DNA of 4,508 nt from a virus (Duplodnaviria > Heunggongvirae > Uroviricota > Caudoviricetes), in IMG/VR virus record IMGVR_UViG_2706794663_000007. One strand, given 5' to 3'. How positions within the stretch are numbered: the first letter of the stretch is position 1; each line of letters opens with the position of its first letter. Of the stretch, positions 431 to 4,508 are shown one piece after another. The notes beneath the pieces are model-generated. The model ran no database searches, had not been told where the DNA came from, and was given only the letters and a program-made list of their open reading frames with translations. Both the position numbers and the translations under genes were made by a program.

Positions 431-754
431 TCTCCCCCTCGCCAAAAACGAGCGTCTAAAAAATTCGAGCCGGAGGCTATTGAGCTGCCCGATTGGTTGC
501 CGGAAACACTCTGGCATGAGTGGGTCCGGTTCAGACAGGCATTGCGAAAACCGATTCGAACGGAGCAGGGCGCTAACGGGGCGATACGGGAACTGGAAAA
601 ATTCCGTCAGCAGGGTTTTACACCTGAGCAGGTGATTCGACACAGCATCGCCAATGAATACCAGGGCCTGTTCGCGCCGAAAGGTGTTCGGCCTGAGACG
701 TTGCTCCGACAGGTTAACACCGTCTCGTTGCCGGACAGTGCGATCCCGCCAGGC
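431..754 (+). CDS. DnaT-like (primosomal protein I-like) C-terminal domain segment of the same replication gene; 3' end lost in the N run
   Basis: Translation ..ELPDWLPETLWHEWVRFRQAL..GFTPEQVIRHSIANEYQGLFAPKGVRPETLLRQVNTVSLPDSAIPPG resembles, from memory, the C-terminal region of E. coli DnaT (..[20 protein letters not shown].. ending ..VNTVSEPDSQIPPGFRG). No ATG or GTG lies in frame between 431 and 496 (only TTG 497), consistent with an internal part of a longer protein. The last resolved codon is 752-754. Confidence 0.6.
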
Positions 755-943
755 NNNNNNNNNNNNNNNNNNNNNNNNNNNNNNNNNNNNNNNNNNNNNN
801 NNNNNNNNNNNNNNNNNNNNNNNNNNNNNNNNNNNNNNNNNNNNNNNNNNNNNNNNNNNNNNNNNNNNNNNNNNNNNNNNNNNNNNNNNNNNNNNNNNNN
901 NNNNNNNNNNNNNNNNNNNNNNNNNNNNNNNNNNNNNNNNNNN
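755..943. other. Run of 189 N (unresolved or masked sequence)
   Basis: Directly visible. Length is a multiple of 3, so the flanking frames fuse in a six-frame translation. Confidence 0.99.
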
Positions 944-1471
944 GCGAATTACCAGGTGCAGAACGACGGCCAGCGATACGCGTTAAGCCAGGCGAAATCC
1001 ATCGCCGATGAACTGATGACCGGGTGTACAAATTTTGCGTTCAGCGGAAAACCTGGTACCGGGAAGAATCACTTAGCGGCAGCTATCGGGAATCGCCTGC
1101 TGAAAGACGGTCAGACAGTGATTGTGGTTACCGTGGCTGATGTTATGAGCGCCCTGCACGCCAGCTATGACGACGGGCAGTCAGGCGAAAAATTTTTGCG
1201 GGAGCTGTGCGAAGTGGATCTGCTGGTTCTTGATGAAATTGGCATTCAGCGCGAGACGAAAAACGAGCAGGTGGTGCTGCACCAGATTGTTGATCGCCGG
1301 ACAGCGTCGATGCGCAGCGTGGGGATGCTGACAAACCTGAACTATGAGGTGATGAAAACATTGCTCGGCGAGCGGGTGATGGATCGCATGGTCATGAACG
1401 GCGGGCGCTGGGTGAATTTTAACTGGGAGAGCTGGCGTCCGAATGTTAGCCATTCGAGGGTTGTTAAGTAG
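944..1471 (+). CDS. DnaC-like AAA+ helicase loader (phage replication protein), 5'-partial
   Basis: Walker A FSGKPGTGKNHLAAAIG, Walker B DLLVLDEIG, and ..IVDRR..MLTNLNYEVMKTLLGERVMDRM..NFNWESW are colinear with E. coli DnaC from about residue 70 onward (recalled, not searched). Stop TAG 1469-1471. About 70 N-terminal codons and the start codon are not in resolved sequence. Confidence 0.85.
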   Translation, partial: ANYQVQNDGQRYALSQAKSIADELMTGCTNFAFSGKPGTGKNHLAAAIGNRLLKDGQTVIVVTVADVMSALHASYDDGQSGEKFLRELCEVDLLVLDEIGIQRETKNEQVVLHQIVDRRTASMRSVGMLTNLNYEVMKTLLGERVMDRMVMNGGRWVNFNWESWRPNVSHSRVVK

Positions 1472-1485
1472 TTTCAGGAGGATTT

Positions 1486-1908
1486 ATGGCGAAACCTTTT
1501 ACTCCCGAACAGCGGGAAGAACTGAAGACGCGAATTGTGGAACTCGTGCATCAGGACGGTCGGGTCACGATTCGGCAGTTGTCAGATGAAACAGGTATCA
1601 GTCGTGCGTCTGTCGGTCGCTTATGCATAGAACTGGTCGCAAGTGGTGATGTATATAATTCTGGCTACGGCTTATTCCCGTCTGAACAGGCTCGCAAGGA
1701 CTGGCAAAGCGCCCGCAAAAAACTCTCGAGAGTAAAGGTGAGGAAACCGGTTGTTGTTGATCCGGACCTTATCTGGTCATTACCTGACGGAGAAATACGC
1801 CGCTACGACAGGCGCCTGAATATAATCTGTCGCGAGTGCCGGAAGAGCGAAGCTATGCAGCGTGTACTGGCTTTCTATCAGGGTAATTTTCAGGAGGCGA
1901 TACTGTGA
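1486..1908 (+). CDS. Helix-turn-helix DNA-binding protein, phage-associated, function unknown
   Basis: ATG 1486 preceded by AGGAGG (1476-1481); 140 aa. The N-terminal stretch ..RVTIRQLSDETGISRASVGRLCIELVASGDV.. has the pattern of an HTH; basic C-terminal region. Stop TGA 1906-1908, only 14 nt after the DnaC-like stop (operon-like packing). Confidence 0.7.
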   Translation: MAKPFTPEQREELKTRIVELVHQDGRVTIRQLSDETGISRASVGRLCIELVASGDVYNSGYGLFPSEQARKDWQSARKKLSRVKVRKPVVVDPDLIWSLPDGEIRRYDRRLNIICRECRKSEAMQRVLAFYQGNFQEAIL

Positions 1909-2322
1909 ATGAAATTAGCTATCAGGCTTCAATTACCGCTGGCATTCGCATCAAAGGAGAGGAGCATGGAAATAAAACCAGAAGATGAGTTAAGCAATAT
2001 CGTTTTATTTCCGGTAAAAGAGGATGACCCTCGTAATCAGGTTAATTTTCTTTATGAGCCATCGGAAAGACCATATTGCCATCACGCCTCTGTACGGGTT
2101 GACGAAAAAGAGCGTCAGGTCCGCTGTAAAATCTGCGGTGCGGTTGTGGAGCCGTTTGACTGGATGCTCTCTGTGGCAAAAAGAGAAACCAGACTGGCAG
2201 ATGATGTAAGGCTATTGCGCCAGGAGGAACAGGAAAGGCGGAGAAATATAGAAAAGCTGATACAGATTGAGCGTAACGCGAAAGCGCGGATACGCAGGGC
2301 GACAAAATCCAGAACTGAATAA
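1909..2322 (+). CDS. Small zinc-ribbon/coiled-coil protein, function unknown (alternative start ATG 1966)
   Basis: ATG 1909 abuts the upstream TGA (TGAATG), with AGGAGG at 1892-1897. ATG 1966 has a better-spaced AAGGAG (1954-1959). Cys/His cluster ..PYCHHASVRVDEKERQVRCKICG.. followed by a charged segment LRQEEQERRRNIEKLIQIERNAKARIRR typical of a coiled coil. Stop TAA 2320-2322. Confidence 0.6.
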   Translation: MKLAIRLQLPLAFASKERSMEIKPEDELSNIVLFPVKEDDPRNQVNFLYEPSERPYCHHASVRVDEKERQVRCKICGAVVEPFDWMLSVAKRETRLADDVRLLRQEEQERRRNIEKLIQIERNAKARIRRATKSRTE

Positions 2323-2350: not shown

Positions 2351-2469
2351 CCTTAACCGGAGGGATTTCTGCACCCTCAAATCATCAGGAGACCACCCGA
2401 AAGGGCGGGGAGCAGTCACACATCTGTTTCCGATAGCCCCGTTCTAATGCTACACTCTTTGATATTTTT

Positions 2470-3156
2470 ATGACCCCAATAAACATATTTATGACAGTTG
2501 CTGATTTCAAACGGCCCAAATTGGAGCTCCCAAACGGGGCAAACAAACTACTACTGCACTCTTGCTGTGCTCCATGTTCCGGTGAGGTGATGGAGGCGCT
2601 TCAGGCCTCGGGAATCGACTACACCATCTTTTTCTACAACCCGAACATTCATCCTCAGAAAGAGTATTTAATTCGTAAGGATGAGAATATTCGCTTTGCT
2701 GAACAACACGGCGTGCCGTTTATTGATGCTGATTACGACACAGACAACTGGTTTGAACGAGCCAAAGGAATGGAATGGGAGCCCGAACGAGGGATCCGTT
2801 GCACCATGTGTTTTGACATGCGTTTTGAGCGGACAGCGCTGTACGCCGCTGAAAATGGTTTCAGTGTGATCAGCAGTTCACTGGGCATTTCACGCTGGAA
2901 AAATATGCAGCAGGTTAACGACTGTGGGCGGCGAGCCGTCGCGCATTATCCGGGCATGGTGTACTGGGATTATAACTGGCGCAAGCAGGGCGGCTCGTCC
3001 CGTATGATTGAAATCAGCAAGCGCGAAAAATTCTATCAGCAGGAATATTGTGGCTGTGTGTATTCTCTGCGCGATACCAATCTACACCGCAAATCTCAGG
3101 GACGCCCTCTTATCAAAATTGGTCAACTCCACTACGGTAAAGAAGAGAAGGAGTGA
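2470..3156 (+). CDS. queH: QueH-type epoxyqueuosine reductase homologue (DUF208 family)
   Basis: 228-aa ORF (ATG 2470; alternative ATG 2491; no clear Shine-Dalgarno for either). N-terminal motif [11 protein letters not shown] (2548-2580) and C-terminal [11 protein letters not shown] match the conserved cysteine motifs I associate with the QueH/DUF208 family; size is also consistent. Stop TGA 3154-3156. Family assignment is by recalled motifs, not by search. Confidence 0.7.
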
Positions 3157-3177
3157 TTTTATGGGGCACCTTTCTGA

Positions 3178-3207: not shown

Positions 3208-3264
3208 GACTGCGGGTGCTTGAGGCTATCTGCTTCAGGCATGAACACCAAAAGGCAGATAGAG

Positions 3265-3335
3265 AAAAGCCCCAGTTAACATTACGCGTCCGGCAAGACG
3301 CTTAACATTAATCTGAGGCCAATTTCATGCTTTGC
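3265..3335 (-). ncRNA. sok: Putative sok-like antisense RNA (approximate boundaries)
   Basis: Expected by analogy with hok/sok loci, where the antitoxin RNA is antisense to the mok translation-initiation region. On the minus strand there is a candidate promoter: -35 TTGCCT (complement of 3365-3370), 17-bp spacer, -10 TAACCT (complement of 3342-3347). This predicts a start near 3335 reading toward lower coordinates across the mok start region. No clean terminator was identified, so the 3' end is a guess. Confidence 0.3.
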
Positions 3336-3539
3336 ACATGTAGGTTAGCCTCTTACATGCCGAAAGGCAAGGAGAAGCAGGCTATGAAGCAGCAAAAGGC
3401 GATGTTAATCGCCCTGATCGTCATCTGTTTAACCGTCATAGTGACGGCACTGGTAACGAGGAAAGACCTCTGTGAGGTACGAATCCGAACCGGCCAGACG
3501 GAGGTCGCTGTCTTCGTAGACTACGAATCCAGGAAGTAA
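3327..3539 (+). CDS. mok: mok-like (modulator of killing) reading frame, an in-frame N-terminal extension of hok
   Basis: ATG 3327 with GAGG at 3315-3318; 70 codons ending at the hok stop. This in-frame extension arrangement matches my recollection of chromosomal mok/hok pairs in E. coli K-12. Confidence 0.5.
   Translation: MLCTCRLASYMPKGKEKQAMKQQKAMLIALIVICLTVIVTALVTRKDLCEVRIRTGQTEVAVFVDYESRK
3384..3539 (+). CDS. hok: Hok/Gef-family type I toxin (small membrane-damaging peptide)
   Basis: 51-aa product MKQQKAMLIALIVICLTVIVTALVTRKDLCEVRIRTGQTEVAVFVDYESRK is near-identical over about 45 residues to E. coli HokD/RelF and Gef/HokC as I recall them. AAGGAG at 3369-3374, 9 nt before ATG 3384. Hydrophobic transmembrane segment followed by the conserved RKDLCE..R..G..EVA.F..YE tail. 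Confidence 0.9.
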   Translation: MKQQKAMLIALIVICLTVIVTALVTRKDLCEVRIRTGQTEVAVFVDYESRK

Positions 3540-3788: not shown

Positions 3789-4076
3789 ATGAAAATCGAA
3801 GAATTGCGTGAAATTTTTAGTGAAAATGGCCTCTATGCTGTGCGCGTTGAGAATGGAGCGATTGTCAGCCATTGCCGCATTAGATGTTTGCAATCTCAAC
3901 AAAGGAAGAGCGGTGCTGTGTTATTTTATTTTTGTAATGGACTTCTGACGGACGGTTTTATTTTGCGTGAGGACGAATTTGTCACATCATTACGGGTTTT
4001 GAAAGAGATTGGTTTTAAGGCTGGTTTTCTGCTTTTGCTGAAGAATAAACTCATCTACAATCTTGAGCAGGATTGA
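3789..4076 (+). CDS. Hypothetical small protein (95 aa), phage-associated
   Basis: ATG 3789 with GGAAGGA (3774-3780) 8 nt upstream; stop TGA 4074-4076. AT-richer than the replication genes by eye. No family recognised. Confidence 0.55.
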   Translation: MKIEELREIFSENGLYAVRVENGAIVSHCRIRCLQSQQRKSGAVLFYFCNGLLTDGFILREDEFVTSLRVLKEIGFKAGFLLLLKNKLIYNLEQD

Positions 4077-4114
4077 ACTCCTGCTGTGTAACACCGTGCC
4101 ACCGGAGAAAGCCG

Positions 4115-4468
4115 ATGGCACATATACAACTGGTCAAACAAACCTCTTCCGGATTACTTCTCCCGGCGACGCCGGAGAGTTGCGATTTTCTGCATCAAAT
4201 CAAAATAGGTGAGTGGATACACGCAGACTTTAAGCGTGTGTGTAACTACGCATTCCACAAGCGTTTTTTCAAACTCCTGCAACTGGGTTTCGATTACTGG
4301 ACTCCGGTCGGTGGGGCGATCACGCCTCGCGAACGAAAACTGGTGTCCGGTTTCGTTGATTACCTGTGTGAATCAGTAGGCCGGGAACATACGCCAGCTC
4401 TGAGCGAAGCCGCAGAGCAATTGAGGTGTACTGGCAATAGCGGACACTACCATTTGTTCTTTTTTTAA
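4115..4468 (+). CDS. Hypothetical protein (117 aa from ATG 4115), phage-associated
   Basis: ATG 4115 with GGAGA (4104-4108) 6 nt upstream. The ORF track starts at an upstream TTG 4073 that overlaps the preceding stop and is probably not the real start. Stop TAA 4466-4468 falls at the end of a T7 run (4460-4466). No family recognised. Confidence 0.55.
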   Translation: MAHIQLVKQTSSGLLLPATPESCDFLHQIKIGEWIHADFKRVCNYAFHKRFFKLLQLGFDYWTPVGGAITPRERKLVSGFVDYLCESVGREHTPALSEAAEQLRCTGNSGHYHLFFF

Positions 4469-4508
4469 GCAGCCATCTGATGATATTTTTCCCTGAAGGC
4501 TGCCGGGG

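Follow-up and report, generated by a model that had tools for sequence, protein, structure and literature searches.

The 4,508-nt stretch of viral DNA held as IMG/VR record IMGVR_UViG_2706794663_000007 (Duplodnaviria; Heunggongvirae; Uroviricota; Caudoviricetes), referred to here in its full length as the window, carries on its + strand an open reading frame (ORF) at positions 2470..3156 that almost certainly encodes a functional QueH, as predicted from its family match, its conserved residues and its modelled fold. QueH is a [4Fe-4S]-dependent, cobalamin-independent tRNA epoxyqueuosine(34) reductase that converts epoxyqueuosine (oQ34) to queuosine (Q34) in tRNA-Asn, -Asp, -His and -Tyr; the family was reportedly defined by Zallot et al. 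in 2017. We consider it fairly probable that a functional QueH was captured by a prophage and serves the Escherichia coli lysogen as a B12-independent enzyme for the oQ-to-Q step. Below we present the evidence for the identity of the protein, for its capture on a discrete cassette and for its maintenance by selection, and weigh this proposal against three other explanations of why a prophage would carry the gene.

Identification of the prophage QueH

A first-pass annotation of the window, based on its letters and a list of its ORFs, had read 2470..3156 as a QueH-type (DUF208) homologue and named a significant DUF208 match and the alignment of its cysteines with the QueH metal ligands as checks. 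The Pfam family PF02677 (QueH/DUF208) matched the protein at 220.6 bits (E = 1.9e-65; gathering cut-off, 23.5 bits) over profile positions 1–174 of 175, that is, nearly the whole profile. The crystallised QueH of Thermotoga maritima (PDB 7lc5) matched it at E = 5e-22 over residues 27–203. The five best PDB matches of an AlphaFold2 (AF2) model of the protein were 7lc5, 7lc7, 9d86, 9dco and 9deu, all of them T. maritima QueH, with E values of 2.5e-9 to 2.8e-8 and template-modelling (TM) scores of 0.77–0.79 normalised to the target; the next-best matches were TtuA, NcsA, TilS and LarE, which are PP-loop/[4Fe-4S] tRNA enzymes.

An exhaustive search of 1.84 billion cluster representatives returned 4755 relatives, and residue conservation was examined in an alignment of the best 150 of them, which are 37–81% identical to the query. 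The query keeps the residues of all 34 near-invariant columns in this alignment, including seven cysteines (C32, C33, C36, C111, C114, C194 and C196). Six of these, C32, C33, C111, C114, C194 and C196, correspond to T. maritima C9, C10, C87, C90, C169 and C171, and each is at least 96% conserved in the 150 diverse representatives, so that all the T. maritima QueH cysteines align with cysteines of the query. They belong to the set H-x-CCAP-C/D ... RCxxC ... CGC, which holds the [4Fe-4S] cluster and an adjacent metal, the individual ligands having reportedly been assigned by Li et al. 2021. The seventh, Cys36, stands at the position of T. maritima Asp13, the residue that is mutated in PDB 9DCO (D13N). 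A cysteine in place of Asp13 was considered as a mark of a divergent or inactive enzyme and ruled out, because cysteine is the family consensus here (116 of 120 representatives) and aspartate is found in 4 of 120, T. maritima among them.

Counted from its first ATG, as in the ORF listing of the window, the ORF encodes 228 aa, with the N-terminal cysteine motif at residues 27–37 and a YCGC motif at residues 193–196; the first-pass annotation had both the coordinates and the motifs right. A second ATG at 2491, seven codons past ATG 2470, is the start chosen by the Prokaryotic Genome Annotation Pipeline (PGAP) and lines up with the starts of the chromosomal orthologues without exception, while ATG 2470 lacks such conservation. 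For these reasons the conserved start is probably ATG 2491, which would give a protein of 221 aa.

The identity of the protein is already known at the level of annotation, where RefSeq and PGAP name it QueH. The corresponding region of the window is 99.9% identical to a locus of E. coli FDAARGOS_944, in which PGAP annotates an 'epoxyqueuosine reductase QueH' (WP_012421537.1), and RefSeq lists the identical protein as a 'MULTISPECIES ... [Enterobacteriaceae]' entry found on at least 1000 contigs. Phage resources lag behind this name: in PHROGs the protein matches phrog_3217 at 460 bits, a family listed as of 'unknown function', whose profile begins at residue 34 and hence lacks the CCAPC motif, and the phage HannyBb (PP925841, 33011-33697) lists its QueH as a hypothetical protein. 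The QueH annotation can be transferred to both. No publication on a QueH carried by a prophage came up in literature searches that combined QueH or DUF208 with prophage, phage or E. coli.

A gene of probable chromosomal origin on a discrete cassette

To delimit the inserted DNA, the window was compared with 84 QueH-bearing prophage or viral loci. The left edge of homology fell exactly at 2420 in 68 of the 84 loci. The right edges varied, lying at 3162, just past the stop codon, in 2 loci, at 3319 in 14, at ~3620 in 47 and at 4421 in 13; since the block runs through hok in the 47 loci that end at ~3620, hok usually travels with the QueH cassette. These edges delimit a discrete and evidently mobile cassette of ~740 bp (window ~2420–3162) with one fixed left junction, and because that junction is fixed at 2420, a single capture event is suggested.

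Outside Escherichia and Shigella, the nearest copies are chromosomal genes with no phage association: at the protein level they are 92% identical in Scandinavium, 91% in Kluyvera and 89–90% in Enterobacter, where the neighbouring genes encode an MBL-fold hydrolase, a DUF1543 protein, a DHDPS-family protein, a GH28 protein, a GNAT protein and an EAL-LuxR regulator. In Erwinia the gene is 86% identical and lies between purL and glrK; in Providencia it is 83% identical and lies near tmcA; in Photorhabdus it is 80% identical. Chromosomal queH genes with 79–92% identity occur in many Enterobacterales, including Erwinia, Providencia, Photorhabdus, Serratia, Pantoea, Dickeya, Enterobacter and Kluyvera. 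The premise of the first-pass annotation that enterobacteria use QueG for this step is therefore too broad, although it holds for E. coli, in which queG was found in every one of 5426 complete genomes. In the Providencia loci (L003/L004, 3265-6645) queH lies ~700 bp from tmcA, which encodes tRNA-Met cytidine acetyltransferase, with one small gene between them, so that two anticodon-loop modification genes are neighbours. As regards the orthologue set itself, the DNA upstream of QueH in a locus titled Bacillus subtilis SK7B5 (L088) closely resembles that of Stenotrophomonas loci, and that in a locus titled Pseudomonas lundensis I31 (L042) resembles that of Serratia loci; both assemblies are probably contaminated or mislabelled.

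Comparison of the orthologues, and this comparison alone, brought out an extended -10-like element, TG-C-TACACT (TGCTACACT), at 2448–2456, ~35–43 nt ahead of the conserved ATG. The sequence TGCTACAcT recurs without variation in the prophage copies and ahead of the chromosomal queH genes of Scandinavium, Kluyvera, Enterobacter, Erwinia and Symbiopectobacterium, while the rest of the upstream DNA around it cannot be aligned between prophage and chromosomal genes; it is present in 20 of 84 orthologue loci, against a background of ~1%. We infer that the native promoter of queH was captured along with the gene. Because the nearest copies are chromosomal and the upstream TGCTACAcT is common to both, the comparison points to a host chromosomal gene taken up with its promoter. 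Synonymous divergence (dS) from the chromosomal orthologues is saturated, so that the capture has no date and the donor genus cannot be fixed.

The first-pass annotation had also described queH by eye as AT-richer than the replication genes. This holds only marginally (GC content 0.486, against 0.54–0.58 for the replication genes), and, with queH at the window mean of 0.49, foreign base composition was discarded as a sign of recent acquisition because it is uninformative.

Prevalence and selection

Among 5426 complete E. coli genomes, 995 (18%) have a queH coding sequence (CDS), nearly always as one chromosomal copy, and carriers include ST131 EC958, APEC O1, 042 and REL606. In 985 of the 995, the copy spans at least 80% of the gene, and among the E. 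coli copies listed all are annotated as an intact 'epoxyqueuosine reductase QueH'. With PGAP labelling QueH in about 1000 complete E. coli genomes, the gene is less unexpected in this setting than the first-pass annotation had supposed. Of the 1017 E. coli places with QueH, three lie not on chromosomes but on plasmids, which could be phage-plasmids. Because queG is universal in E. coli, QueH is strictly an additional enzyme there.

In IMG/VR, relatives are found on at least 189 viral contigs, and the 80 best are 99–100% identical. A survey of 50,697 phage records found one cultured-phage record, HannyBb, with a close QueH copy, whereas prophage copies are common. Two records titled 'Acinetobacter phage MD-2021a' (CAKLQH020000001.1 and CAKLQF020000001.1; 328-379 kb) contain a 78% identical QueH annotated as a 'putative prophage protein'; records of this size are more likely to be contigs of bacteria than genomes of phages.

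Prophage alleles (the window, EC958/O157, E. coli B and HannyBb) differ by dS of 0.15–0.29 and by nonsynonymous divergence (dN) of 0.004–0.016, giving dN/dS of 0.025–0.076. As these alleles have a common capture junction, their divergence arose in the prophage context. The ratios argue that queH is kept there by purifying selection and is not decaying.

The prophage cargo slot

The matching FDAARGOS_944 locus is a lambdoid prophage adjoining ybhA, in agreement with the earlier description of the gene as prophage cargo. Its genes run from the integrase ... through cI/Cro-like genes, YdaT, replication genes (ydaV), DUF977, a small Zn-ribbon protein, QueH and hokD to a hypothetical protein, a NinB-like protein, DUF1364, DUF1133, tRNA-Ile/Arg/Thr/Gly, holin, lysozyme, terminase, head and tail. 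The features of the window around queH are as follows.

1486..1908, + strand: DUF977 / Ren-like protein (Pfam DUF977, E = 1e-33; phrog_142, 'Ren-like exclusion protein')
1909..2322, + strand: Zn-ribbon-like hypothetical phage protein (weak, sub-cut-off match to Zn_Ribbon_TF; phrog_1621, unknown function)
2420..2490, + strand: putative cassette leader (left junction at 2420; extended -10-like element at 2448–2456)
2491..3156 (longest ORF from 2470), + strand: QueH CDS (ORF, PF02677, 7lc5 match, predicted fold, PGAP WP_012421537.1)
3214..3389, + strand: sok family match (Rfam RF01794, 117 bits against a gathering cut-off of 59), hok/sok regulatory region
3327..3539, + strand: mok/hok frames (Pfam Hok/gef PF01848, E = 1e-22; the hokD CDS of PGAP in the matching genome corresponds to 3384-3539)
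4073..4508, + strand: NinB/DUF1367-family gene, truncated by the window end (Pfam DUF1367, E = 1.5e-46; phrog_319, NinB/Orf)

DUF977 is the last conserved phage gene ahead of the cargo slot in most prophages and precedes QueH in EC958, O157 Z1831, E. coli B and E. albertii. The gene at 1909..2322, which separates DUF977 from the QueH cassette, is peculiar to this prophage variant and is absent from the EC958 and E. coli B arrangements. Downstream, all the features of a hok/sok type I toxin–antitoxin locus are present, namely a Hok/Gef ORF, an overlapping mok frame and the sok antisense RNA, and queH stands directly upstream of hok, as had been noted in the first pass. The NinB-like gene, which is full length in FDAARGOS_944, marks the return of the conserved nin region past the cargo slot.

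QueH also occupies this slot, following DUF977 and preceding hok, in ST131 EC958, in E. coli B derivatives including REL606 (within Qin) and in E. albertii. In K-12 Qin it is occupied by relB-relE, directly upstream of hokD, as the first-pass annotation had stated. In O157:H7 Z1831 (L010 5851-7861), QueH is followed by genes for a C5-methyltransferase and an NgoMIV-type endonuclease, with no hok annotated between; this arrangement is a further sign of a cargo hot spot. REL606 and an 'original E. coli B' derivative retain QueH, and BL21(DE3) was expected to carry it like E. coli B. The expectation was wrong: Qin of BL21(DE3) (NC_012971.2) has a clean 1361-bp deletion that takes the 3′ end of DUF977, a methyltransferase fragment, QueH and ~290 bp downstream, as mapped by comparing locus L013 (~31225-31485) with L011 (4592-5952) and L175 (20377-21042).

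The tRNA genes of the prophage (Ile, Arg, Thr and Gly; L001 23423-23733, before the lysis cassette) include no queuosine substrate, these being Asn, Asp, His and Tyr. Elsewhere in the window, positions 755-943 are 189 masked letters (N) within the replication genes, and because of this run the listed 324-aa ORF 497..1471 is an artefactual fusion of two genes, which in the matching genome encode a 262-aa hypothetical protein and the DnaC-like ATP-binding YdaV. Between hok and the NinB-like gene lies a 95-aa ORF (3789-4076; phrog_340; a hypothetical protein in PGAP) without a Pfam match and with the lowest GC content in the window (0.396).

Proposed function and alternative explanations

E. coli makes oQ-tRNA by a complete Q pathway and cannot make cobalamin de novo. 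We propose that a single capture took queH from an Enterobacteriaceae chromosome on a ~740 bp cassette that would include a short leader and the extended -10-type element, and that this cassette settled in lambdoid (Rac/Qin-like) prophages, at the cargo hot spot that separates the replication/DUF977 genes from hok/sok-nin. In an organism that always keeps QueG and has no cobalamin synthesis of its own, the prophage QueH of a lysogen would act as a B12-independent isozyme with which the host could complete queuosine when cobalamin is unavailable, a lysogenic-conversion ('moron') function. The enzyme would then be active in E. coli, be expressed from its own cassette promoter in the lysogen and confer a fitness benefit under B12 limitation. 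Several published observations are consistent with this proposal. Queuosine synthesis in E. coli ends in a cobalamin-dependent step (PMC4646009), and, according to a passage of PMC6850298 that cites Frey 1988, tRNA has oQ34 in bacteria grown on glucose-salts medium without B12 and Q34 forms in rich media. QueH is a non-orthologous replacement of QueG in some bacteria (PMC5372724), and Staphylococcus aureus has both enzymes, with differing expression profiles (PMC13443448). Of the three roles that the first-pass annotation had offered, a cobalamin-independent backup for the host is the best supported.

A number of results weigh against this proposal. At the level of the protein, the AF2 model is of moderate confidence (predicted local distance difference test score, pLDDT, 72.5; predicted TM score, pTM, 0.73), and no NCBIfam hidden Markov model (HMM) matched at E ≤ 0.01 even though PGAP names the protein QueH; the NCBIfam library apparently holds no QueH HMM. 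At the level of expression, neither candidate start codon (2470 or 2491) has a recognisable Shine–Dalgarno sequence, and a generic sigma-70 scan found no + strand promoter upstream of queH, leaving TGCTACACT unflagged, and no intrinsic terminator downstream of it, so that transcription could come only from phage early read-through. At the level of physiology, to our knowledge no functional difference between oQ- and Q-tRNA has been established, so a benefit of the last step is unproven, and the gene is dispensable in the laboratory, K-12 never having had it and BL21(DE3) having lost it by the 1.36-kb deletion. The activity, expression and phenotype of the prophage copy are all predictions.

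Such dispensability is what one would see if queH were a neutral hitch-hiker, an active or inactive gene that spreads because successful lambdoid prophages carry it next to their hok/sok addiction locus and that benefits neither host nor phage. The cassette mostly co-travels with hok/sok, the host always has queG, queH is dispensable in K-12 and BL21(DE3), and no queH phenotype is known. Functionless genes of cryptic prophages normally decay. The strong purifying selection between alleles that have a common capture junction (dN/dS 0.03–0.08 at dS ≤0.29) is hard to reconcile with neutrality, and the intactness of all catalytic and near-invariant residues and the coverage of at least 80% of the gene in 985 of 995 copies also speak against it; we regard neutral carriage as unlikely. 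Alternatively, the gene could serve the phage: QueH made from early transcripts during lytic growth might raise Q over oQ and so favour phage translation or alter the host response. The position of queH in the delayed-early (nin) region fits this idea, since the gene follows the replication genes on their strand and the scan showed no terminator separating them, and in Shewanella phage infection induces queG, oQ falls and Q rises (preprint, bioRxiv 10.64898/2026.03.05.709803), a precedent that makes the oQ-to-Q step a possible regulated node. The first-pass annotation had likewise listed phage-directed tuning of translation among the possible roles, but codon usage lends it nothing, the NAU codons decoded by Q-tRNAs not being enriched in prophage genes (NAU fraction 0.54, against 0.57–0.65 in host genes). 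The cassette, moreover, retains a host-type promoter element common to chromosomal orthologues, close copies are rare among cultured phages (HannyBb only, in the 50,697 phage records) and common in prophages, and the prophage tRNAs (Ile, Arg, Thr and Gly) are not Q substrates. Such service to the phage is in our judgement distinctly unlikely.

A role outside tRNA was also considered, in which the substrate is 7-deazaguanine in the DNA of the phage or the host, or a different epoxide or nucleotide, with a function in, for example, anti-restriction or counter-defence. The slot is indeed rich in conflict cargo (relBE in K-12, hok/sok, the C5-methyltransferase and NgoMIV-type endonuclease of O157 Z1831 and the methyltransferase fragment of E. 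coli B), and 7-deazaguanine DNA modifications and QueC-family defence proteins are known from phage–host conflicts (PMC6884629 and PMC13639016). Neither the window ORFs nor the annotated matching prophage, from integrase to baseplate, contain a gene for a DpdA/TGT-like transglycosylase or for preQ0 synthesis (FolE, QueD, QueE or QueC). This extends the earlier observation that the window has no other queuosine or 7-deazaguanine genes; it also leaves the suggestion of an activity on 7-deazaguanine in nucleic acid unsupported, and a DpdA-type DNA-modification system was rejected on the same grounds. PADLOC gave no match to a defence or anti-defence system for QueH or its neighbours, and epoxyqueuosine was not found among DNA modifications in the literature examined. 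Since the protein is 86–92% identical to ordinary chromosomal QueH and keeps all the family-invariant residues, it shows no sign of neofunctionalisation. We consider a role of this kind highly improbable.

Implications

The identification as such adds little, as the RefSeq name exists. If a B12-independent oQ-to-Q enzyme is indeed what the prophage supplies, strains would differ in the oQ/Q state of their tRNA under B12-free conditions according to the prophage they carry, and we incline slightly towards the view that about one in six E. coli strains, including ST131, APEC O1, 042 and B/REL606, may finish queuosine without B12 thanks to a prophage. This would amount to lysogenic conversion of the tRNA epitranscriptome, for which K-12, which never had the gene, and BL21(DE3), from which it is deleted, are natural negative controls. 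The complement of oQ reductases differs by prophage, K-12 having QueG only, REL606, of the B/REL606 lineage of the long-term evolution experiment, having QueG and QueH, and BL21(DE3) having QueG without the QueH that it lost; results on queuosine or oQ obtained in minimal (B12-free) media may therefore depend on the strain. The locus would give natural genetic access to the question whether oQ-tRNA and Q-tRNA function differently, and it is a clear case of a host tRNA-modification gene that a phage has taken up, apparently with its promoter element, and kept under purifying selection.

Comparison with known systems

The prophage protein resembles T. maritima QueH (PDB 7LC5, 7LC7 and 9DEU) in its full-length domain, six cysteines, predicted PP-loop / adenine nucleotide alpha-hydrolase-like fold and length of ~220 aa, and its E. 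coli host has a complete Q pathway supplying the oQ-tRNA substrate. It differs in sequence (~30% identity), in having Cys36 where T. maritima, the unusual one within the family, has Asp13, in a C-terminal tail of ~25 residues (201–228) that lies outside the Pfam domain, and in being encoded on a prophage rather than in a chromosomal housekeeping context. With the chromosomal QueH proteins of Enterobacterales it has 79–92% identity, the same length and the same N-terminus in common and, in the nearest relatives, also the upstream TGCTACAcT. Those genes lie among metabolic and regulatory genes (purL-queH-glrK in Erwinia; by tmcA in Providencia), unlike the E. coli, E. albertii and Shigella copies, which lie in lambdoid prophages beside hok/sok.

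QueG carries out the QueH reaction (EC 1.17.99.6) and occurs alongside QueH in E. coli, being encoded in 5426 of 5426 genomes, but it is unrelated to QueH in sequence and fold, requires cobalamin and belongs to the core chromosome, whereas QueH is accessory (18% of genomes). As a genetic unit, the queH cassette is closest to the morons of the lambdoid nin region, such as relBE-hokD of K-12 Qin: it is a discrete insertion between conserved phage genes, it is absent elsewhere (relBE stands in its place in K-12 Qin, and the slot is empty in BL21(DE3)), and the content of the slot varies between related prophages. The scan detected no terminator of its own for the cassette, and its own promoter is the putative element at 2448–2456. 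What sets it apart from these morons is its cargo, a tRNA-modification enzyme instead of a toxin–antitoxin, restriction–modification or virulence gene.

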